From a phage, in sequence record PQ724393.1: DNA of 64,000 nucleotides, one strand, 5' to 3'. Each line of letters opens with the position of its first letter. Position 1 is the first letter of the stretch. The translations under genes and the position numbers were made by a program. Shown in pieces: positions 3,962-60,395 of the stretch. The notes below the pieces were generated by a model. It ran no database searches. It had not been told where the DNA came from and saw only the letters and a list, made by a program, of their open reading frames with translations.

Positions 3962-4089
3962 AATTTCCTCAATATGTTAGGTTCTACATCTATAATAACA
4001 TAGAACCTGTTAAGCATGGACTGATATTTATAGAATGAAATTCAGTCCGACCATAATAACCAAAAACAGAGTACAGATTATTTGAATTT

Positions 4090-5744
<1,655 letters not shown>

Positions 5745-20694: not shown

Positions 20695-21495
20695 ATGGCA
20701 ATCGTAGGATTACCCGGTTGGGTCGGCCAATCTGCAGTTGACGAAACAGGTCAACGTTGGATGGATGCAGCAATGCGTGATGTTCGTGTAGCTGTTCCGG
20801 GTTGGATGGGTTCGATGGCTAACCAATCAAAAGAAATTTACTTATCTATAGGGGCTAATCATAACTATGATAGGAATACCCTTATAAACTGGATGAGAGC
20901 ACAAGGTGGTGCGCCTGTGGTTATTACAATTACCGGCGACTTGGTATCAAATAGCCGCGGAAACCCTTGCCTGGAATTCCCTAGCAATCTTCCTAACGCA
21001 TATATTCAACTTACCATTAATAGCGGTGTGACTGTTTATGGCCGAGGAGGCCGAGGAGGCTGGACCCATAGCAACGGCAATGGTAATGGTGAGGCCGGCG
21101 GAATAGCCATACAAAACAATGCCGGAACTAAACTTCGTATCCGTAATAATGGCGCTATAGCCGGTGGTGGTGGCGGTGGCGGTGGCATCGCGTATAGGCC
21201 CCATTCAGGTGCTAACTGGCAAGATATAGGCGCTGGCGGCGGTAGACCATTTGGTGCAGCTGGTGGCGGAGGATACTCCGGTGGGGCGGCATCTCTTACC
21301 GGAGCAGGTGGTGGTTATAATTATGGTAACGCGCATTCCGGTGCTGGTGGGAATGTCGGTGCTAAAGGCCAAAACGCTTGGAATGATGGAGGTAAAGTGC
21401 TTAAAGTTGGCGCTGGTGGTAATGCTGGGGCAGCAGTCGCCGGTAATGCTCCTAACTGGCAAAACGTTGGTACGATATACGGAAGCAGAGTATAA
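20695..21495 (+). CDS. 38: T2-type receptor-binding adhesin gp38 with glycine-rich motifs
   Basis: N-terminus MAIVGLPGWVGQSAVDETGQRW, poly-Gly blocks, C-terminal WQNVGTIYGSRV. Confidence 0.8.
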   Translation: MAIVGLPGWVGQSAVDETGQRWMDAAMRDVRVAVPGWMGSMANQSKEIYLSIGANHNYDRNTLINWMRAQGGAPVVITITGDLVSNSRGNPCLEFPSNLPNAYIQLTINSGVTVYGRGGRGGWTHSNGNGNGEAGGIAIQNNAGTKLRIRNNGAIAGGGGGGGGIAYRPHSGANWQDIGAGGGRPFGAAGGGGYSGGAASLTGAGGGYNYGNAHSGAGGNVGAKGQNAWNDGGKVLKVGAGGNAGAAVAGNAPNWQNVGTIYGSRV

Positions 21496-26587: not shown

Positions 26588-26748
26588 TTCTTGACCAAGG
26601 CTTCCAGAAATTTAACGATTGCATCAATTACGAACCAAGTGCAAATAAATCCAACAGCGAAAGGACCTGGAACCCACACACCAGCAGCAAAAAGGGTTAC
26701 CCACACAATAACAATCACGAGCCAGATAAAAGTATAAATCGGTAGCAT
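26584..26748 (-). CDS. Small hydrophobic membrane peptide, 54 aa
   Basis: Hand-translated; ATGA overlap with next ORF. Confidence 0.3.
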   Translation of the reverse strand: MLPIYTFIWLVIVIVWVTLFAAGVWVPGPFAVGFICTWFVIDAIVKFLEALVKK

Positions 26749-26835
26749 ATTTTCCTCATTAGCGTCCGAAGACGCCTTTAGTTTTAAGATTGTTACGATA
26801 GAACTGCATCACATGTTCGTTATGGAAATTACTCA

Positions 26836-27285
26836 TTAGTAAGCCTGCAGAACGAATTTGAAGTTATCAGCCAACATACGGTTCATTTCTTCCAGGGTCT
26901 GGAGATCTGAACTATGGTTGCGAGTGAAAGCCATTGCAATTTGTCCTTTACCAAAACCTGTAGTCAGAGGTTTCATTTTAGAAGCCGGTACATAAAGAAC
27001 TTCATACAGGATACTGTTAGTTTTCATGGTACGGTTGGCTTGAGAACGAGCTGAACGAATATTCTTAAGAACACCATCCAGACCTTGTCCTGAACGCTGA
27101 TTACCTACATAGAAGCGAGCAGCTACGATGCGGTTTTCGCCAACACCTTTAACAAAGAAATAGAAGCCTGGCTGGGCAGAGATTTCTTTAGAAGGCTTAC
27201 CGTTTTGGTATTCACCATTCTTAACATAAGCAACAGTAGTAGCACCTGCAGACAGAACGTTACGGCGAGTCATATAAGTATTCAT
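26836..27285 (-). CDS. ndd: Nucleoid disruption protein Ndd
   Basis: 149 aa, T4 Ndd-like size and position; C-terminus [16 protein letters not shown] recalled as Ndd-like. Confidence 0.5.
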
Positions 27286-35485: not shown

Positions 35486-35746
35486 TTAATCAAATCGAAT
35501 GGTCGACTTTTTAAAGAATAACCCAGAACAAACTGTTCCTTCAACCCTTTTACCTGTCGGCCCTACAGCAATAAAGCCTGTACGCTGGAAATCATCTTCA
35601 GAACAGCCGAATAAGTTGTATCCTGTGATTTGGATTTGTTCGTAGCCATTTGCATCCAATACACGGGTAGCATTATCGGCATCAGTACAACCAACCAACG
35701 AAACTGCTAGTACAAGAGCCGCAATAGAACGATTAACATATTTCAT
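35486..35746 (-). CDS. Putative lipoprotein, 86 aa
   Basis: Signal peptide with lipobox LVGC at residues 17-20. Confidence 0.5.
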   Translation of the reverse strand: MKYVNRSIAALVLAVSLVGCTDADNATRVLDANGYEQIQITGYNLFGCSEDDFQRTGFIAVGPTGKRVEGTVCSGLFFKKSTIRFD

Positions 35747-48219: not shown

Positions 48220-48513
48220 TTACTCACCTGTAACCTCTTTAACGATGTTTTTGTTATCGAAATTAGCGTCACAATACAAAACATAGTTGTACTGCATAAC
48301 ACCGGTTGAAGCTAATTGGTCGGACACTTCTTTAACCATGTCAGGACGGTCACGTTTAGTGATGTTCATGATATCGGCATAAATCTGATGTTCAACATCA
48401 GTTTGGTCGGCAGTCATAGACCACTCACAAAGGTCTTTATCCAATCCGGCCGTTACTGGAGCTGTACCACATGATGCTACGGTAATAATTGCTGCGATTA
48501 ATAACTTTTTCAT
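48220..48513 (-). CDS. sp: Periplasmic superinfection-exclusion protein Spackle
   Basis: 97 aa; signal peptide then DKDLCEWSMTADQT...VMQYNYVLYCD as in T4 Sp. Confidence 0.7.
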   Translation of the reverse strand: MKKLLIAAIITVASCGTAPVTAGLDKDLCEWSMTADQTDVEHQIYADIMNITKRDRPDMVKEVSDQLASTGVMQYNYVLYCDANFDNKNIVKEVTGE

Positions 48514-52562: not shown

Positions 52563-53456
52563 TTAAAGGACCACGTCCTCATAACTTGGCATTTCGTGCC
52601 CAGAATGGATATGGGCACCGAAATAAATGAATTCAGCCAGACCAGGATGGAATACTAAACCTGGGTTCTCATGATAAATGATATGCGGTCTTGATTTCAG
52701 AATCTGATAATACTCAACCTTACTCGGTTTGAATTTAACAATCTCTACATCAGGACGATAGTCTTCACGCTTAAATGAATCATTAGGGTTGGTGATATAA
52801 AGACGAGCACCTTCAGCCGCAGCTTGGTCTACAACTCTTTCGAATTGATAGCACTTATCCGAAATACGGAATGGATGGAAAATACCATCAATTTTAATAG
52901 GCGCTAGACCTTCAGAGTAACGCTCAATTACTGCAGGATTAATTACCTTTTGGTCTACAAAAATCTTATCAGAGGATGCACCTCGTGACACCAGGACGTC
53001 TTTCTGGCATTGATTCAGGACTGTAGTATAAAGTGAACGTTCAACTGAAGCCACATCAATATCAATGAACTCGTCGATATAATAACGAGGAACTTCAGGG
53101 TCCATTGTGATATTAAAGTTGAATTGTACAGTATGAGCACCATCATAACCTGTGATATCGGTTACCAGTCCTGAGCAATCATAGTATTCGATTAGTGAAT
53201 CGACTACAAACTCATTTTCAGACCAGAAATGTTTACGGGTTTCATAAGCATTTTCTTTATACCAAAGTGGTACGAAATTCAGTTCTGGGAATAATTCAAT
53301 GCATTCTTTGATATCGCTCGAATTTCTAGGATAAGCCAGATAATCACCTGGACGAGCACGATTTAAATGGAGTTGAAAATTGCCGTCCTTAAGGACGGCA
53401 TATTCACCTGTTTCGTAACTACGCATACTGAAAATAGGAACGATAAACAAACTCAT
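52563..53456 (-). CDS. Unrecognised protein in the T4 beta-glucosyltransferase position; candidate DNA glycosyltransferase
   Basis: 297 aa, ATGA-coupled to gene 42; no resemblance to T4 Bgt that I can recognise; possible DxD-like FIDIDV. Confidence 0.35.
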   Translation of the reverse strand: MSLFIVPIFSMRSYETGEYAVLKDGNFQLHLNRARPGDYLAYPRNSSDIKECIELFPELNFVPLWYKENAYETRKHFWSENEFVVDSLIEYYDCSGLVTDITGYDGAHTVQFNFNITMDPEVPRYYIDEFIDIDVASVERSLYTTVLNQCQKDVLVSRGASSDKIFVDQKVINPAVIERYSEGLAPIKIDGIFHPFRISDKCYQFERVVDQAAAEGARLYITNPNDSFKREDYRPDVEIVKFKPSKVEYYQILKSRPHIIYHENPGLVFHPGLAEFIYFGAHIHSGHEMPSYEDVVL

Positions 53457-54151
53457 TTCAGGAAACCTCGGACGTAGTCAAAATCACGTTCAAACACGTG
53501 TGCACTTACCATGGTGTGGGAATACGTACCTAAACCAACACCACACTGTTCAGCAATAAATGCCATCAGTTTACCCTGCAGATAGAAATCCAGCTGCATA
53601 ACAACAGCGCAGTTTTGTGAACGCATATGGGTGTGTGCATACAAACGCCCGTCACGAATATAATACGTTACCGAATCGGTGCAAGGGTATTCTAAGGATT
53701 CGTCAGAATCAAGGAGGGCTTGGTCTTGTTCTTGGAGAATCTGGAACACAACTCTTCGCGAGTTGGCCTTTTCTTTAAGCTCTTTAAGTAGGGCTGGGAG
53801 TTGGGCCGCAATTCGAGGTCCATAGAAAGTGTTGAAGTTTGCAGGCAATACGTCACTTTTCGGCTTATCAATGAACTTAGCAACATTAGGGTATTCCTTA
53901 AATGCTTCGGCAGCGTCAGTACCACCAGAAATCATAAATTTCCAAAAGGATTCGGCATATTCATAACTGATACGATTGATACGTGGGTCGGTGAATTTAT
54001 AGGTGCTGACATCCAGTACTTCTATAGAAGCAGAACCAATTTCATAACAACGTCCGATACGAGAATCAACTGCAAACTGTGGAGCTTCCAGGATTTCTTC
54101 GTTCATTTGTTTAAATGCATTTTCAAAACTAACAGCGGTAATGTGTTTCAT
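53453..54151 (-). CDS. 42: dCMP hydroxymethylase gp42 (thymidylate-synthase fold)
   Basis: 232 aa; SRRVVFQI and CTDSVTYYIRDGRLYAHTHMRSQN regions align with T4 gp42 motifs. Confidence 0.7.
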   Translation of the reverse strand: MKHITAVSFENAFKQMNEEILEAPQFAVDSRIGRCYEIGSASIEVLDVSTYKFTDPRINRISYEYAESFWKFMISGGTDAAEAFKEYPNVAKFIDKPKSDVLPANFNTFYGPRIAAQLPALLKELKEKANSRRVVFQILQEQDQALLDSDESLEYPCTDSVTYYIRDGRLYAHTHMRSQNCAVVMQLDFYLQGKLMAFIAEQCGVGLGTYSHTMVSAHVFERDFDYVRGFLK

Positions 54152-54684
54152 TTATTCACCTTATTTTCAATATATTCGTTCAGACGTTTTAATTCTACCA
54201 TATCAACATTAAGCAAATTATTATGGCCGTCATGATTTAAGATTTTAAACACGTTTTCAAAACATGTTTCGTATTGCTGGATAGTTAGGTTGAACTCATC
54301 TTTGGTTAATTTAATAAGGTCATCTTCGAAGTCTTCGTCTAATGGGTTGCGAGTTAAAATAACTTCGATAACGTTAAATTCAGATTTAAACCCTTTCCAA
54401 TCTTCCAGTTCTACATAAGGGTCCATTTCACCACGAAGGAATCCCGAGTAAACAATATTACTAGGATACCCACGGTCTAAGATGTAGACAAAATTAGGGT
54501 CTAAAAACTTATACAGAGTTTCAACTAAAGCCTTGTCATTATCAGTCCCTAATGAAATGCATTTGCCATTAATCTTTTTAGGGAAATCAATAAGACGATA
54601 TTTCTTATCAGATAAAAGTGATTCAATTAAAGTAGACTTCCCGGAATTATCCGGGCCGTCGATAACAATGATTTTTGGTTTCAC
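54148..54684 (-). CDS. Thymidylate-kinase-like P-loop kinase
   Basis: Walker A IIVIDGPDNSGKST; TMPK-like DRG...SNIVYSG region; ATGA-coupled both sides. Confidence 0.6.
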   Translation of the reverse strand: MKPKIIVIDGPDNSGKSTLIESLLSDKKYRLIDFPKKINGKCISLGTDNDKALVETLYKFLDPNFVYILDRGYPSNIVYSGFLRGEMDPYVELEDWKGFKSEFNVIEVILTRNPLDEDFEDDLIKLTKDEFNLTIQQYETCFENVFKILNHDGHNNLLNVDMVELKRLNEYIENKVNK

Positions 54685-55079
54685 GGATGATATGCCTTAT
54701 AACTATCAAGAGTTCCTTCACGAACCAATTCTTTAAAGTGGTCTGGACGGATTGCTCGGTCATCGATGATAAAAGTATAACTCGGCTTGTGTGTAAGCAA
54801 ATTGTGATATTTCAATCCAATTTTTTCAAGGTTCTTAACCAATGCAGGAACTACTTCAACCAAGATTCGACCTGGGCCACATGAAGTCATGCCACGGGCA
54901 GTGAATAATGTAATCTCGTACCCTTCATCATAAAGCTTATTAATCATGGACACCATTTCGGTGTCCGGTTTAAAGTTCTCATAATCACGGTCATGGTTCC
55001 AAATCGTGATTGTGTTATCGATATCAAAACATAAATGTGGCTTATTTTCTACTCGATGCGACATTAAATTTTCTTCCAT
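54681..55079 (-). CDS. Small HAD-superfamily phosphatase
   Basis: HAD motif I FDIDNTIT, motif II LFTAR, Lys in THKP, motif IV FIIDD. Confidence 0.6.
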   Translation of the reverse strand: MEENLMSHRVENKPHLCFDIDNTITIWNHDRDYENFKPDTEMVSMINKLYDEGYEITLFTARGMTSCGPGRILVEVVPALVKNLEKIGLKYHNLLTHKPSYTFIIDDRAIRPDHFKELVREGTLDSYKAYHP

Positions 55080-56767
55080 TGTTTGTGGAGTTCAGTAGAA
55101 CCTGTAGGTTTATATTTTACACCAGTTTCCTGGTCAAGCAAAACCCACTTATCAGGACAACGAGTAATAATTTGAGCCGTGATAGGGTCACGAACTTCAT
55201 CGACAAATTCACCAGTAATAAGCTTACGCTTACGAGGATGCCGCTTCAGCAGCACACTCAGTTGGTACAAACCGTTATAATAAGCACCCAGAGCTTTCAG
55301 AGGGTTATTCTTAAAGTAACCTGCCAGAGCCATCCAAATAACAGCAATCCAGAGCTTGTGCTTAAATGTGCACATAGGAATATCGTCTAAAGGCATAACC
55401 TTTTCAATATCAACGAATACACGAGTTCCATTACGAGTTAATCCACCCCATAGAGGGTCTGAGTTAAATTTGTCATAGCCATCGATAGAATAAAGCACCT
55501 TAGCTTCATCATAAATCGCAGGGCCTTTAGAACTATTACCGAAATAACCACGTGGGTCGATGATTTTAATATCACCTTCGTCCGACAGCATAATATTACT
55601 GTAGTGCGGGTCGCCATGAATAAGTTGGTACGGCTCTTTATGTTCAGACAGAATTTCTAGTGCGTGGCGGAGAAGTTTTTCAGGGTCGCCTACTTTGAAA
55701 TCGTTAACATGGGTAATGCCTTGTGGAGCAAAGCCTTCAATCAATCCAGCAATAGAAGCATTACGAATAAGGACCTTGTCCAATACTTCTTTCTTAACAT
55801 CAGAATACCATTGCTCATCGGACGGATTATCGATAGTTCCACCAAATGAACGTAATGCACTAATGACCTTATAAACCATGAGGACTTTAGTTTCTTTAGA
55901 CATAAACCGGTAGGCATCTGCCATGGTGCGACCAAAGATACGTTCCATTTTAATGAATTCGCCTGGAGCAAAGTCTACAATGCTCGGAACAAATTCAGAA
56001 TCAATAGAATTATACCAATTGATTTCTTTAGATTGGATTTCTTTACCTAATTCGTTGGTAGGTACTTTAATAGCCAGATTCTCAGTGAACTCTAATTTAT
56101 TAAATTCACGGTTAATTTCAGAATCTTCATGGGCCCTAGCCAGTTTCAATTTGTCACCGACATCAACCACAAAGTCCAGCTTACGTTCAGTCAAATGGAC
56201 CATCGAATCCAGGTTGTCTGCAAGGTCTTCGCCATAATTAGAACGGTCGAAACCTGTCCAATTAGCCACCTGATACAAACCAACCACACCACCGCCAGTA
56301 CCAATTTCACGCAAGTACGGTTCTTCAAATGTAAAACGACAGTCGGTCCCATAGGTATAACAGTAGTCGTTATCCCACTCAACTTTATGACCTTCAGGAA
56401 TAATATCACACCAGTTAAACAAGACATTATGCCCGATGATATCTTCGGCAATGCAATCGATAGCATGAGCTGAACCGTTGGCCACATCTACGTTACGAAT
56501 AGTGAATTTAGGCTTATCACTGGTAATCATGTTAATGGATTTAATGTAACCCTTAACGAGGTCATTAAATTTGCTGTGAATAACCAGAATAATTTCATCT
56601 GATTGGTTACTATACAAATCATACAAATGTTTTAGTACTGTATGCTGTTTGTAGTTAACCAATACCTTCGGGATTTCGTTAGTAATTGGATACAACCGTG
56701 AGCCAAGACCCGCGCCTAAAATAACAACCTTTTTCATTATCTGTTCCTCAAGTGAATGTAGGTACAT
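55064..56767 (-). CDS. Bifunctional sugar-1-phosphate nucleotidyltransferase / APH-like sugar kinase (start may be at the internal MKKVV)
   Basis: N-terminal RmlA-like ILGAGLGSRLYPITNEIPK; C-terminal kinase Brenner-type motif LIHGDPHYSNIM and IIDPRG. Confidence 0.65.
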   Translation of the reverse strand: MYLHSLEEQIMKKVVILGAGLGSRLYPITNEIPKVLVNYKQHTVLKHLYDLYSNQSDEIILVIHSKFNDLVKGYIKSINMITSDKPKFTIRNVDVANGSAHAIDCIAEDIIGHNVLFNWCDIIPEGHKVEWDNDYCYTYGTDCRFTFEEPYLREIGTGGGVVGLYQVANWTGFDRSNYGEDLADNLDSMVHLTERKLDFVVDVGDKLKLARAHEDSEINREFNKLEFTENLAIKVPTNELGKEIQSKEINWYNSIDSEFVPSIVDFAPGEFIKMERIFGRTMADAYRFMSKETKVLMVYKVISALRSFGGTIDNPSDEQWYSDVKKEVLDKVLIRNASIAGLIEGFAPQGITHVNDFKVGDPEKLLRHALEILSEHKEPYQLIHGDPHYSNIMLSDEGDIKIIDPRGYFGNSSKGPAIYDEAKVLYSIDGYDKFNSDPLWGGLTRNGTRVFVDIEKVMPLDDIPMCTFKHKLWIAVIWMALAGYFKNNPLKALGAYYNGLYQLSVLLKRHPRKRKLITGEFVDEVRDPITAQIITRCPDKWVLLDQETGVKYKPTGSTELHKQWKKI

Positions 56768-56797
56768 TATACACTATTTTTAATAAATTGGTATTGC

Positions 56798-57298
56798 TTA
56801 AATCTTATCTTTACCGATTTCAATACACCGTTCTATTGCCGCCGGTACTTTGGTCTTGAGCTTATTGATTTGTTTCTTATAATCACGGGCTTTATCGAAG
56901 CTCTCGGTTTCGAGCATTTCGTAATAACGAGCCTCGTGGATGGAAATCTGTAGATTGATATGGTTTACGCACATCGCATACAGTTTCTGCTTTTTGTACA
57001 AATCATCTTGACGCTTCATTTCTGCCTGGTGTTTGGCTAGTACCGCTTCACGCTTAGACTCTTGTTCACGTTGGAATTCGATTTCCCTTTGAGCATATTT
57101 TGCACAGTTATTACCGCATTGATTATTAGCTCGGGTATACACAAGCCCAGAACCAGCACGGAATTTCATTTCACCGTCATATTGTTTCTGTTCAGCTGCG
57201 ATACGAGCTTTACCAACTTCATCAGCCGAAACTGCATCGCCATATTGGACCGCGCAACCTGATAGGAGCATACTCATTGCGATAATTAACTTTTTCAT
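56798..57298 (-). CDS. Putative lipoprotein with coiled-coil region
   Basis: Signal peptide with lipobox LLSGC; charged helical region. Confidence 0.5.
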   Translation of the reverse strand: MKKLIIAMSMLLSGCAVQYGDAVSADEVGKARIAAEQKQYDGEMKFRAGSGLVYTRANNQCGNNCAKYAQREIEFQREQESKREAVLAKHQAEMKRQDDLYKKQKLYAMCVNHINLQISIHEARYYEMLETESFDKARDYKKQINKLKTKVPAAIERCIEIGKDKI

Positions 57299-57307
57299 GG
57301 AATTCCC

Positions 57308-57544
57308 TTACTGTTTAACAATAATGATTTGTGCATTTGATTTACGTTCAGCGACGATGGCCCAGATTAAAGCCACTACCCAACCAATCATCGTCCAACC
57401 CAACAGGAGGTTTAGGAAGAAAATTCCGACATTACTACGAGTGCCTCGCAGAAGAGCCAGAATCCATGGTAAAAAGTAACCGATGAACATAATAACCAGA
57501 GAACCGAATCCTAAAACACCAGCACTAACGATTAAAGCTTCCAT
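57308..57544 (-). CDS. imm: Superinfection immunity membrane protein Imm
   Basis: 78 aa, two TM segments, NLLLGWTMIGWVVALIWA motif; position next to gene 43. Confidence 0.55.
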   Translation of the reverse strand: MEALIVSAGVLGFGSLVIMFIGYFLPWILALLRGTRSNVGIFFLNLLLGWTMIGWVVALIWAIVAERKSNAQIIIVKQ

Positions 57545-57574: not shown

Positions 57575-57604
57575 ATACTACCACGTTCCTTGTGGTATGT
57601 AAAC
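57575..57604 (-). promoter_or_regulatory. T4-type early promoter upstream of imm (variant family)
   Basis: GTTTAC (57599-57604), 18 nt spacer, TAGTAT -10. Confidence 0.5.
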
Positions 57605-57606
57605 AC

Positions 57607-60318
57607 TTAAAAGTCGAACATATCAAATAATGTTGCTTTTTTCTCGTAGTCGATTTTAGCAGACTCAGTAAAACCAGTCAGAGGCTTGATAAAGGTCTTT
57701 TGGAACAGTACGTTGTAGTCCATCCAACGGAGGACTTGGTCACGAATCTGAATCGGAAGTTCAATACCTGACGGCCATGCCATACAAGCTTCACCGAACG
57801 GGTTGCCTTCTTTAAGCGGCAGTACATATACCTTTTCACCATCAACGATACGAGGCATAGTCAAATCACCTGCAGAAGCACGCATGTAAGCTAAGCAACC
57901 TTTGATGTGGTACGGGCATTTAGAACCAGGGAATCCGCCTTCATTATATTTCTCGATGTTGTTAGCACTGGATACTGCTGCAATGCTTACATAGTTGAGT
58001 TCGTTAAATTCCTTATTAAACTGTTTGAAATATTCTTGCAAAGATGCCTCACCTTCCTGAAGCATACGACGGATACATTCCTTCAGAGCTTTCTGAACTG
58101 CTTTAGGTGTACTTGATTTCTGAGTTTCGAGGCCCATGATTTTCAAGTGTGGTTCGGCATAACGAGTACCTTCCATGTCCCAAACGTTCAGTGCATAACG
58201 TTTCTTACCTGTCCAGAATCCACCAAGACCTTTAGAACCAAGTGGAGGACCTGCGATAGCTTCTCGGTCCATGAACATCAAGTGCTGTTTGTTGTTCATG
58301 TACTCGCACATCTCACGGAAGCCTGCATCAATAGCCGGTTCCATACGTTCACGTGCAAATTTATCTAAGAAGTCAACCCAGTGGTTAGTATCACGGAATT
58401 TGTCTTCGCCTACTTTATTGATGATTGCATCAGCCTTAACATAAATGGAGTCAGTATCACCATAGAGCACGAACTTCTGGTTTTCAGTCTTGCACACACC
58501 ATTCAGGTATTCGTTAACCTTACGTTCAATCCATTGGAGGGCCATTTGACCAAACAGTGTGATTGCAGTTGCGTTCCTGAGGTCGTAATAACGGAACCAT
58601 ACGTTACCAAGTGCACCATAAAGGGAGTTGATAAGCAACTTACGGTTAATCTGAGCAGTCATACCTGCAACTTCGGTACGTTCAGCTCTGAACAACATTT
58701 CTCTTAAAGAAGGTGCTGACAGCGTTTTAATCTTGGCTTTGATTTCGTCAGAGAAGTCAAAACGATAATCGATATCCAGTGGACTATCAGCCGAGAGATT
58801 AGGATTTTCTAATGCTTCTTTAATTAACTCACCATTACGTTGAGCTGCAAGCATATAACCTTTATGTTCTTTACGTTGTAAGAACACCTTAGTGATTTCT
58901 GTAGGAATAACACCATCGCGGTCTTTATAGTACATCATGCCGTTAGGAGAGCAACTGTAGACGTCGCTAGGACGCGGAGCTGTTCCGGCAATATATTCAT
59001 GTATCGGTGCGTTAGCGAATGTCCCTGCGATGGTCTCTGGGCTTATATTCACTTGTCGAATGATACTCGGGTACAGAGATGTAAGGTCGAAACTCATTAC
59101 ATATTTGTAAGCGTTAGGAATCGGTTCCTTAACGAAAGCACCAGGATAAGGTTGAACCACGTGTGAACGAGCTTGTGGAATTACCTTGCCTTGTTCTTTA
59201 AGGCTATTAAAGATAATAGCGTCCCAAGTCTTAATTGGACTAAACACCGACTGAATCTGCATCTTGGCATAATAACCCATGTCCAAACTCAGAAGAATGA
59301 ACTGACGCTTCATATCAATCTGCACTACACGATATACGTCGATAATGTTATAGGAAATATATCGTTGGTGGTTCGTCTCACGTAACTTAGAGATTGGACC
59401 ATCATATTTCAACTTACCCACTTTCAATTCATATTCAGAAACATAATCCAGAGAATAAGAAGGCTGGTTGGTGAAGCTGAATTTTTTATAGAGGTCGATA
59501 TAATCCAGAACAGAGATACCGAACAATGTAATGATTTCACGAGCACCGTACATGTTCTCAATAACTTTAACACGAGTTTTACGATGTGGGCTTAATCGCT
59601 TAGCAGTGTTCTCACCGAACAGATTTTTCAGACGGTTATAAACGTACGGTACGTCAAACGACTCAACGTTCCATCCAGTCAAAATCACAGGAGTTTTCTG
59701 TTGCCAGAAATTCAAGTACTCAAGCATCATTTCTTCTTCAGAATTAAACGGAAGATAAACGATTTTGTCAATGATTTCCTGTGGAACTTCGTCACCACCT
59801 TCGTCTTGGAGTTTCTCAGCGATTTTAATCGACCACTCTTCAACAGTACCATAAGGCGAAACTAAAAGGTCGAATACATAGAATTTATCGTCAATCGAGT
59901 CGTAGTGGGTAATGGCATCGATAGGATGTTTAGCCTGAGCTGGTTCAGGGAATCCATCAGGAGATGTTACCTCGATGTCGAAGTTAGCAATACGAATCTT
60001 AGAAGAATCATATTTGATTTCTTTACGATAGGTATCAGACAAATAGGCTAATTTATAGTCGTCCATACCCAGGGCTTCGAGACCCATATCATCCATACGT
60101 TTCATCCATTGGGATGCATCACGCATAGAATCGAATTCTTTCTTAACACAACCCTTACCATAGATATCAATGTATTTTACGGCTTGCTCTGGGTTAGCAT
60201 GCATAAACATTGTGGGCTTGTATGGAACTTCACGACTACGTTCGTTACCATTTTTATCGATGTAACGTTCGAGAATATTATCACCGATTTGTTCGACTGT
60301 CAAATAGAATTCTTGCAT
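57607..60318 (-). CDS. 43: DNA polymerase gp43 (family B), start at MQEFYLTVEQIG; track ORF extends to 60378
   Basis: Exo and Pol motifs (FDIEV, YGDTDS); close resemblance to RB69 gp43 along the whole length; SD AAGGAAA before ATG. Confidence 0.9.
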   Translation of the reverse strand: MQEFYLTVEQIGDNILERYIDKNGNERSREVPYKPTMFMHANPEQAVKYIDIYGKGCVKKEFDSMRDASQWMKRMDDMGLEALGMDDYKLAYLSDTYRKEIKYDSSKIRIANFDIEVTSPDGFPEPAQAKHPIDAITHYDSIDDKFYVFDLLVSPYGTVEEWSIKIAEKLQDEGGDEVPQEIIDKIVYLPFNSEEEMMLEYLNFWQQKTPVILTGWNVESFDVPYVYNRLKNLFGENTAKRLSPHRKTRVKVIENMYGAREIITLFGISVLDYIDLYKKFSFTNQPSYSLDYVSEYELKVGKLKYDGPISKLRETNHQRYISYNIIDVYRVVQIDMKRQFILLSLDMGYYAKMQIQSVFSPIKTWDAIIFNSLKEQGKVIPQARSHVVQPYPGAFVKEPIPNAYKYVMSFDLTSLYPSIIRQVNISPETIAGTFANAPIHEYIAGTAPRPSDVYSCSPNGMMYYKDRDGVIPTEITKVFLQRKEHKGYMLAAQRNGELIKEALENPNLSADSPLDIDYRFDFSDEIKAKIKTLSAPSLREMLFRAERTEVAGMTAQINRKLLINSLYGALGNVWFRYYDLRNATAITLFGQMALQWIERKVNEYLNGVCKTENQKFVLYGDTDSIYVKADAIINKVGEDKFRDTNHWVDFLDKFARERMEPAIDAGFREMCEYMNNKQHLMFMDREAIAGPPLGSKGLGGFWTGKKRYALNVWDMEGTRYAEPHLKIMGLETQKSSTPKAVQKALKECIRRMLQEGEASLQEYFKQFNKEFNELNYVSIAAVSSANNIEKYNEGGFPGSKCPYHIKGCLAYMRASAGDLTMPRIVDGEKVYVLPLKEGNPFGEACMAWPSGIELPIQIRDQVLRWMDYNVLFQKTFIKPLTGFTESAKIDYEKKATLFDMFDF

Positions 60319-60375
60319 TTCATTTCCTTTATAGACGAGTGATTGTCTTTTGTTTGTTGATGAATCATTATACTC

Positions 60376-60395
60376 CAAAAAGGGACCGAAGTCCC
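60376..60395 (-). terminator. Hairpin GGGAC-UUCG-GUCCC + U5, followed by TGGAGTATAAT
   Basis: Stem-loop and U-run seen; TATAAT hexamer immediately 3-prime. Confidence 0.5.

Follow-up and report, generated by a model that had tools for sequence, protein, structure and literature searches.

Bacteriophage T4 has been studied for 70 years, and its imm.1 gene and relatives of it, which lie beside the classic immunity gene imm, are still without an assigned function. What such a gene encodes, and what its product may do in the infected cell, is a question raised by a gene at positions 56,798 to 57,298 of a 64,000-nucleotide stretch of phage DNA (sequence record PQ724393.1). This whole stretch is referred to as the window. 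The source phage is a Dhakavirus, a JS98/IME08-like T4-type coliphage. Very probably, the gene is the Dhakavirus member of the T4 Imm.1 family and codes for a processed outer-membrane lipoprotein.

56798..57298, minus strand: coding sequence of the predicted Imm.1-family lipoprotein, 166 aa plus stop, ATG start (list of open reading frames (ORFs) and sequence; PHROG 1754, E 1.5e-51; ratio of non-synonymous to synonymous substitution rates (dN/dS) 0.03-0.12)

That this ORF is a real, conserved gene is confirmed. Its protein sequence opens MKKLIIAMSMLLSGCAVQ; the N-terminus (MKKLIIAMSMLLSGC), the coordinates and the length are those given in an earlier annotation made without database searches (the sequence-only reading). 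The dN/dS range was obtained across six Dhakaviruses and is similar to that of the neighbouring genes. Within Dhakavirus, the corresponding ratio of polymorphisms (pN/pS) is 0.09 for the N-terminal module, 0.04 for the stalk and 0.13 for the head (the modules are described below), indicating purifying selection in each. A chance ORF was rejected on the basis of the low dN/dS and of homologues in 131 phage records (tblastn); those listed are all T4-like phages of Enterobacterales. A gene on the opposite strand was also rejected: on the plus strand there are ORFs at 57062-57262 and 56752-56859, but the gene with which they overlap is strongly constrained in its own frame. The 901 bases around the gene match 52 phage records with 80-99% identity (mostly 95-98%), and the matches listed are all Dhakavirus or Dhakavirus-like phages. 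Across ~50 Dhakavirus genomes, the ORF is 95-99% identical. The Dhakavirus records listed annotate the gene as "hypothetical protein", apart from a few spurious product names such as "DNA endonuclease IV" (ESCO10) and "capsid and scaffold protein" (vB_EcoM_FB). Remoter homologues are named "lipoprotein" in a few records.

Homology to T4 Imm.1 is convincing when sequence profiles are compared. The match of the window protein to PHROG 1754 covers residues 1-163, and T4 Imm.1 matches the same family with residues 1-124 (E 6.1e-43). An hhalign comparison of the Dhakavirus group with the T4 group gives a probability of 96.3% (E 1.8e-9), part of the signal being supplied by the signal peptide; with the Gelderlandvirus group, the probability is 98.9%. 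An intermediate sequence (P0040) bridges the T4-type and the other family sequences. The T4 type has further family features: a motif following the lipobox cysteine (post-Cys motif), a C-terminal cysteine pair and the gene neighbourhood. It is because of the profile-profile match, the link via P0040 and these common features that we consider the proteins homologous. Pairwise BLASTP against T4 Imm.1 is not significant (E 7.9, ~20% identity), so that the case for homology is made via profiles.

The product of T4 imm.1 is a 125-aa lipobox protein (LAG/C, the slash marking the cleavage point) that belongs to Pfam DUF5481 (PF17578) and scores 5e-72 against this model. The window protein does not match DUF5481 even at E <= 10; the model is narrow and represents Tequatrovirus-type sequences only. 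In RefSeq (NC_000866, 26636-27013), the T4 imm.1 product carries the name "iduronate sulfatase", to which our searches give no support. T4 imm.1 was already placed under phrog_1754 in the CRISPRi-ART supplement (PMC11879866). As the family has been delineated in PHROGs, only the modular architecture and the head-cassette exchange described below go beyond existing annotation.

The family appears to be small and confined to phages: a set of 1.84 billion proteins yielded 27 clusters (at 50% identity). Searches of Pfam, NCBIfam and PADLOC returned nothing meaningful for the window protein: no PADLOC model matches it (T4 Imm.1 obtained one meaningless weak match), and matches to MTBP_mid, FlgB and RT_UG34 were rejected, all being far below the cut-offs. 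Nothing outside the family resembles the protein in PDB, Pfam or BFVD. A LysM receptor-kinase stretch from a PDB sequence-profile search was rejected as a chance match (E 1.5). A 1550-aa Big_9/cadherin-repeat protein (P0041) matches the beta-hairpin motif described below nine times; this was judged to be a short-motif resemblance amplified by repeats, not homology. A literature search on the function of imm.1/DUF5481 returned only a mention of Imm.1 as a T4-group marker gene.

According to the sequence-only reading, the 166-aa protein has a classic lipobox (LLSGC). This assignment holds: the ORF is exact, and a PROSITE PS51257-style lipoprotein rule is satisfied.

57254..57298, minus strand: predicted signal peptide, aa 1-15 (MKKLIIAMSMLLSG/C; PS51257-style rule, Ala at +2; lipobox in 28 of 29 family representatives)
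57254-57265, minus strand: lipobox L12-S13-G14-C15, with Cys15 as the predicted lipidated N-terminus of the mature protein

The N-terminus can be segmented as MKK-LIIAMSML-LSG-C15, which complies with the rule in its regular-expression form: K2 and K3 in the n-region, six uncharged residues, [LIVM..]2-[..S]-[AGS]-C, and Cys15. The same rule is satisfied by 28 of the 29 family representatives. The residue at +2 is Ala in the window protein, and none of the 29 representatives has Asp at this position. In E. coli, Asp at +2 precludes sorting to the outer membrane (Lol avoidance). From compliance with the lipoprotein rule and the lack of Asp at +2, we predict an outer-membrane lipoprotein that faces the periplasm. 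A distant family member (P0036) has an ordinary signal peptide in place of the lipobox, which again points to the periplasm. The cysteines fit this location. C110 and C158 are invariant across the 29 representatives, T4 type included, and C61 and C65 are either jointly present (17 cases) or jointly absent (11 cases) in 28 of them; the T4-type sequence has an extra Cys pair placed elsewhere. Such a paired pattern is as expected for two disulfides formed in the periplasm.

It should be noted that the lipobox expression also fires on Sp, whose signal peptide ends in ITVASC/G and which has been described as soluble and periplasmic. The lipobox rule is thus not fully specific.

48220-48513, minus strand: homologue of Sp (spackle), phrog_1586, E 2.5e-42

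Another small lipobox ORF (86 aa, opening MKYVNRSIAALVLAVSLVGC; phrog_902) is found at 35486-35746 on the minus strand.

The predicted architecture was taken from an AlphaFold model. The model used is that of a second run with a 29-sequence alignment (mean predicted local distance difference test score (pLDDT) 83.9); it replaced a first run with 20 sequences, in which the N-terminus was poor (pLDDT 68.5). The mature protein is divided into three modules.

57116..57253, minus strand: N-terminal module, aa 16-61 (model and alignments; most conserved part of the family)
56984..57115, minus strand: predicted charged helical stalk, aa 62-105, the first part of a 70-residue helix (62-131), with C65 of the CxxxC pair (model)
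56801..56983, minus strand: head, aa 106-166, a predicted antiparallel helical hairpin and variable cassette-like module (pLDDT 95-98)
56969-56971 and 56825-56827, minus strand: codons of C110 and C158, both invariant, which bracket the head hairpin

In the model, the N-terminal module consists of a tether (16-26), a helix (27-39) and a beta-hairpin (42-47/51-56). The hairpin carries the family motif G-[ST]-G-L-x-Y-x-R-x-x-N-Q-C-G-x-N-C, in which Y54 is invariant. Helix and hairpin may form a small conserved knob that would be stapled by a C61-C65 disulfide. Within the stalk (residues 62-105), 43% of the residues are D/E/K/R, and a heptad pattern is lacking (the best a/d register is 33% hydrophobic); it therefore resembles a charged rod rather than a classical coiled coil. 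With ~70 residues, the charged helix would measure ~100 Å and could project into the periplasm as a tethered rod. In the head, the long helix continues to residue 131 and is followed by return helices (134-149 and 151-163). Charged residues (D/E/K/R) amount to 33% in the head (residues 106-166). Residues 100-163 show a good a/d hydrophobic periodicity (78% and 63%), which is consistent with an intramolecular antiparallel hairpin; a C110-C158 disulfide would clamp this distal hairpin. The sequence-only reading had described a charged coiled-coil body. The protein is indeed helical and charged, but the term coiled coil fits only in part: the stalk is devoid of heptads and the distal part is predicted to be an intramolecular hairpin.

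The modules differ in their conservation. Across the family, conservation is highest in the N-terminal module and lowest in the head. When compared to the window protein, identities for N-terminal module, stalk and head are 98/78/28% for P0004, 85/72/33% for P0005 and 62/50/28% for the Gaprivervirus type. P0004 is encoded on a metagenomic Dhakavirus contig (L015; SRR25011185_2070, 4001-4498) with the same gene order as in the window. At the nucleotide level, the gene on this contig is 93-97% identical to the window gene over the first 300 nt and 50-58% identical from nt 300 to 480; identity is 100% right after the stop codon. As judged from this alignment, the head on L015 is a sharply bounded cassette replacement. 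The ESCO10 allele (L012, 4001-4501) differs from those of the other Dhakaviruses by a synonymous substitution rate (dS) of ~1.0-1.3, and the flanking genes (imm, polymerase and transferase) by 0.2-0.45, which suggests that in ESCO10 the lipoprotein gene alone was replaced by recombination. An exchangeable head that is under purifying selection within a lineage, as reflected by its pN/pS, is typical of specificity modules; for the competition role proposed below, we count these replacements as an arms-race signature.

The gene is part of a minus-strand series with the order gp43, imm, lipoprotein ORF, nucleotidyltransferase-kinase, HAD-like protein, P-loop kinase and thymidylate synthase-like (TS-like) dCMP hydroxymethylase.

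57607-60378, minus strand: gene for DNA polymerase gp43
57575..57603, minus strand: T4 early-type promoter-like site, TTTACA within GTGTTTACA, 17 nt, TG-n-TAGTAT (consensus scan, pattern match)
57308..57544, minus strand: imm, coding for a 78-aa membrane protein of superinfection immunity; presumed to head an operon with the lipoprotein gene (PF14373, E 5e-18; phrog_1039, E 3e-32)
57299..57310, minus strand: imm/lipoprotein junction with a 9-nt spacer; a Shine-Dalgarno-like AAGGGA (57304-57309) overlaps the imm stop codon TAA (57308-57310) (sequence)

The early-type promoter-like site (GTTTACA, 17 nt, TGGTAGTAT) lies between the gene 43 stop codon and imm, and is the likely start of an imm-lipoprotein transcript. 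From gene 43 to the modification cassette, the minus strand was found to hold no terminator-like site. The proposal of the sequence-only reading that the lipoprotein gene and imm share a transcript is thus very probably correct as far as the sequence goes, given the 9-nt gap, the AAGGGA, the early-type promoter and the lack of a terminator. For T4 imm.1, RNA and protein are both early, the same class as sp (PMC9697503 supplement). Knock-down of T4 imm.1 by dCas13d was scored "Not Fit" (PMC11879866 supplement), so that fitness on the laboratory host did not suffer. This result is compatible with an accessory role and does not identify the role.

The gene has also been said to occupy the T4 imm.1 position. 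Family and neighbourhood agree with this, but the order does not: in the window, the lipoprotein gene is 3' of imm, whereas imm.1 is located between gene 43 and imm in T4. Both arrangements are found elsewhere. The order 43, imm.1/lipoprotein, imm, 42 is present in T4, in Salmonella phage Melville and in Citrobacter phage Ursula. The order 43, imm, (a small 42.1-like ORF), lipoprotein is present in Dhakavirus, Gaprivervirus and one metagenomic T4-like lineage. In one order or the other, the gene adjoins imm in Tequatrovirus, Gelderlandvirus, Ursula, Dhakavirus, Gaprivervirus and the metagenomic lineage. A conserved position was looked for and was found just 3' of gene 43, beside imm and the genes for hydroxymethylcytosine (hmC) modification.

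Several observations concern the immediate surroundings. In most Dhakaviruses (QL01, JS98 and ESCO10), a 45-aa hydrophobic ORF (phrog_3610, T4 "42.1"-like) lies between imm and the lipoprotein gene, and its start overlaps the imm stop codon (ATGA; loci L002 3600-3744, L013 3856-3993 and L006 3611-3751). The window and IME08 are without this ORF, and a 9-nt junction (57299-57307) that contains GAATTC is left. In PM2, PEi26, LC53 and EcS1, the ORF is found one gene 3' of the lipoprotein gene. As its position varies around the lipoprotein gene, the ORF seems to travel with the neighbourhood. The downstream neighbour, the nucleotidyltransferase-kinase, has 557 or 567 aa. The 60-nt spacer on the 3' side of the lipoprotein stop codon (56737-56797, minus strand) carries an extended -10-like TGTATAAT. 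The first ATG of the 567-aa ORF (56767) sits within this box (TGTATAAT, 56766-56773). Related records start the gene at the ATG at 56737 (MKKVV…, 557 aa), with a GAGGAA ahead of it. The cassette at 53453-56767 (minus strand), whose annotation refers to similarity with RB69 orf045c-052c, codes for the nucleotidyltransferase plus kinase, the HAD-like protein, the P-loop kinase and the TS-like hydroxymethylase. Presumably, these enzymes produce a hypermodification of hmC of the sugar type. PM2-like phages have an additional gene for arabinose-5-phosphate isomerase directly after the lipoprotein gene.

With high confidence, we regard the product as an Imm.1-family protein that is made early and can be dispensed with, and that is predicted to stand in the periplasm as a rod tethered to the outer membrane; its base is conserved and its head exchangeable. 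The following function is proposed. The gene would be transcribed early, jointly with imm, from the early-type promoter 3' of gene 43. After export via Sec, its product would receive a lipid at Cys15 and be cut by signal peptidase II, as predicted from its N-terminus. The conserved N-terminal knob and the stalk would provide anchoring and reach, and the variable head would contact a variable partner, for example a component of the incoming phage's tail tip or ejected proteins. The protein would then be an accessory, non-essential envelope factor of the infected cell, acting in the periplasm against competitors, most likely as one of a set of proteins for superinfection exclusion and envelope protection, together with Imm in the inner membrane and Sp in the periplasm. 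In addition to the association with imm, it may be noted that Sp is encoded in the window, too. We infer such a role in phage-phage competition, by exclusion or by envelope protection together with Imm and Sp, from five points only: where the gene lies, when it is expressed, its dispensability, the repeated adjacency to imm and the cassette-like head. The role is proposed tentatively, and we would not be surprised if it proved wrong. The explanation as a whole, function included, has a somewhat less than even chance of being right.

A bolder version would make the Imm.1 family an unrecognised third component of T-even superinfection exclusion. The protein would be an outer-membrane-tethered "periscope", with a disulfide-clamped, swappable head that recognises variable injection machinery or ejected proteins. 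It would thereby set the specificity of exclusion among competing T4-like phages, possibly bridging to Imm where Imm is present. We consider this version unlikely.

Several points weigh against a role in competition beside Imm. Lipidation, localisation and disulfides are predictions. A literature search found no experimental function for any family member. Cloned T4 imm alone reportedly confers immunity (Lu and Henning), so that a partner is not required. Four genera (Mosugukvirus, Kanagawavirus, Winklervirus and Kagamiyamavirus) carry the gene after gene 43 with no imm adjoining. The gene order of T4-like phages is generally conserved, and the adjacency to imm could be inherited synteny, the constant anchor being gene 43. 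A six-frame search with hidden Markov models found no Imm homologue in Serratia phage CHI14 (NC_041996, 171 kb; best E 0.5). This phage has the lipoprotein gene directly after gene 43 (26729-27142, E 3e-41), and spackle is present, too. Relative to the window, Imm from ESCO10 has ~2 non-synonymous differences, as compared to ~29 (17 aa) in the lipoprotein. The contig with the swapped head (L015) is 97% identical at the nucleotide level across the upstream block that includes imm. Because Imm is nearly constant while the lipoprotein or its head differs, Imm and the head do not co-evolve. A strict dependence on Imm is thus disfavoured, and the link to Imm is positional only.

The main rival explanation is that of a host-envelope modulator unrelated to exclusion, in which the rod binds a conserved periplasmic or envelope component. 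Candidates are peptidoglycan, Lpp/Pal/Tol, a protein for outer-membrane assembly or stress sensing, or an envelope-located defence; the envelope would be stabilised or re-programmed during infection, for example in prolonged lysis inhibition. The persistence of the family in CHI14, which lacks imm, and in the four genera without adjacent imm speaks for this, as does the retention of knob and lipobox in phages of Escherichia, Salmonella, Serratia, Edwardsiella, Pectobacterium, Enterobacter and Citrobacter, which fits a conserved enterobacterial target. The T4 homologue being early and dispensable on a laboratory host is equally compatible. The predicted rod of ~100 Å is of the order of the distance between outer membrane and peptidoglycan; Lpp measures ~80 Å. 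A conserved host target, however, leaves the swap of the head cassette between near-identical phages unexplained. Moreover, similarity to known envelope-binding domains was not found in sequence or fold, the LysM-like stretch mentioned above being not significant. On balance, an envelope modulator is doubtful, though it deserves to be kept in mind.

Receptor masking had been suggested in the sequence-only reading. In the manner of T5 Llp or phi80/N15 Cor, the lipoprotein would bind the phage's own outer-membrane receptor from the periplasmic side, block further adsorption and shield progeny phages from debris on their release. An early, outer-membrane-directed lipoprotein of a lytic phage is of the same general class as Llp, and a variable head could in principle track a variable receptor. 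The comparison with the adhesin gp38 argues otherwise: gp38 is ~62% identical in Dhakaviruses such as ABTNLS3, LQ5 and LHE83, but the lipoprotein locus is 97% identical at the nucleotide level (95.8% for the ABTNLS3 protein). With gp38 varying and the lipoprotein constant, the determinant of receptor specificity is not tracked, as far as this indirect test can tell. Similarity to Llp or Cor was not found in PHROG, Pfam or PDB searches; the Cor PHROG was hit only by the VR7 homologue, and there by its signal peptide (E 0.025). To our knowledge, T-even receptors (porins, OmpA, Tsx, lipopolysaccharide) have no periplasmic plug of the FhuA kind, which also counts against masking. We therefore disfavour this earlier suggestion as improbable. 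Even less probable, to the point of being negligible, is a lysis component that disrupts the outer membrane late in the manner of an o-spanin or a unimolecular spanin. Lipid anchor, helices and periplasmic cysteines are features that the protein would share with spanins. Spanins are, however, expressed late, and the T4 homologue is early in RNA and protein; a C-terminal transmembrane or hydrophobic segment is lacking; the neighbours are Imm and the nucleotidyltransferase-kinase, with no i-spanin; separate spanin genes exist in T4-like phages at the pseT.2/pseT.3 locus (annotated in CHI14); and knock-down of T4 imm.1 had no fitness effect.

As to the adhesin itself, the gp38-type gene of the window (20695-21495, plus strand) has a single full-length match of high identity (DCP80, 98%) among 50,697 phage records. 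Its other matches are mostly at ~60-64%, including the listed Dhakaviruses. With only one high-identity match, the receptor-binding tip of this phage is an unusual allele for the genus.

For the present, the gene is an ordinary conserved accessory gene and a member of a known, uncharacterised family, and its assignment as a lipoprotein is correct. The family gains a defined architecture, as predicted from sequence and model: a lipid anchor, a conserved knob, a charged rod and a disulfide-clamped variable head. With this, a "hypothetical protein" becomes a candidate specificity factor for phage-phage competition. If true, this would be relevant to the design of cocktails of T4-like phages, where mutual exclusion limits co-infection. 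If it is the host envelope that is modulated instead, the family would represent a new class of small periplasmic effector.

Among known systems, T4 Imm.1 (T4p046, UniProt P18057, DUF5481/PF17578) is the closest. Its full-length sequence matches the same PHROG, and the two are connected by the profile-profile match. Like the window protein, it has a lipobox, the post-Cys motif Q-G-x-V-x-x-S/E-V-G-K and two C-terminal cysteines, and its gene is found in a neighbourhood of gene 43, imm and genes for dCMP hydroxymethylase and modification. The proteins differ in length (166 aa as compared to 125 aa in T4) at an identity of only about one-fifth. In T4 Imm.1, a G-[ST]-G-L-x-Y / QCGxNC hairpin cannot be recognised and the extra Cys pair is placed elsewhere. 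The genes also differ in their order (43-imm-lipoprotein in the window, 43-imm.1-imm in T4). Imm (PF14373) and Sp are encoded in the same window and are likewise early envelope proteins, imm being the immediate upstream gene. Imm resides in the inner membrane; Sp is soluble and inhibits the gp5 lysozyme in the periplasm. Both are unrelated in sequence to the lipoprotein, which in CHI14 occurs without Imm.

T5 Llp and phi80/N15 Cor are phage outer-membrane lipoproteins that inactivate FhuA and are a functional precedent for exclusion at the envelope. The window protein has no sequence or fold similarity to them, being mostly a long helix and not a small compact domain, and it does not co-vary with the adhesin. 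Ltp from Streptococcus phage TP-J34 is a lipoprotein that blocks DNA injection, and its exposed domain presumably catches the phage on entry. It is similar in being a membrane-tethered, largely helical phage lipoprotein. Ltp differs in that it is from a temperate phage of a Gram-positive host and is anchored in the cytoplasmic membrane, and a sequence relationship with it was not detected.

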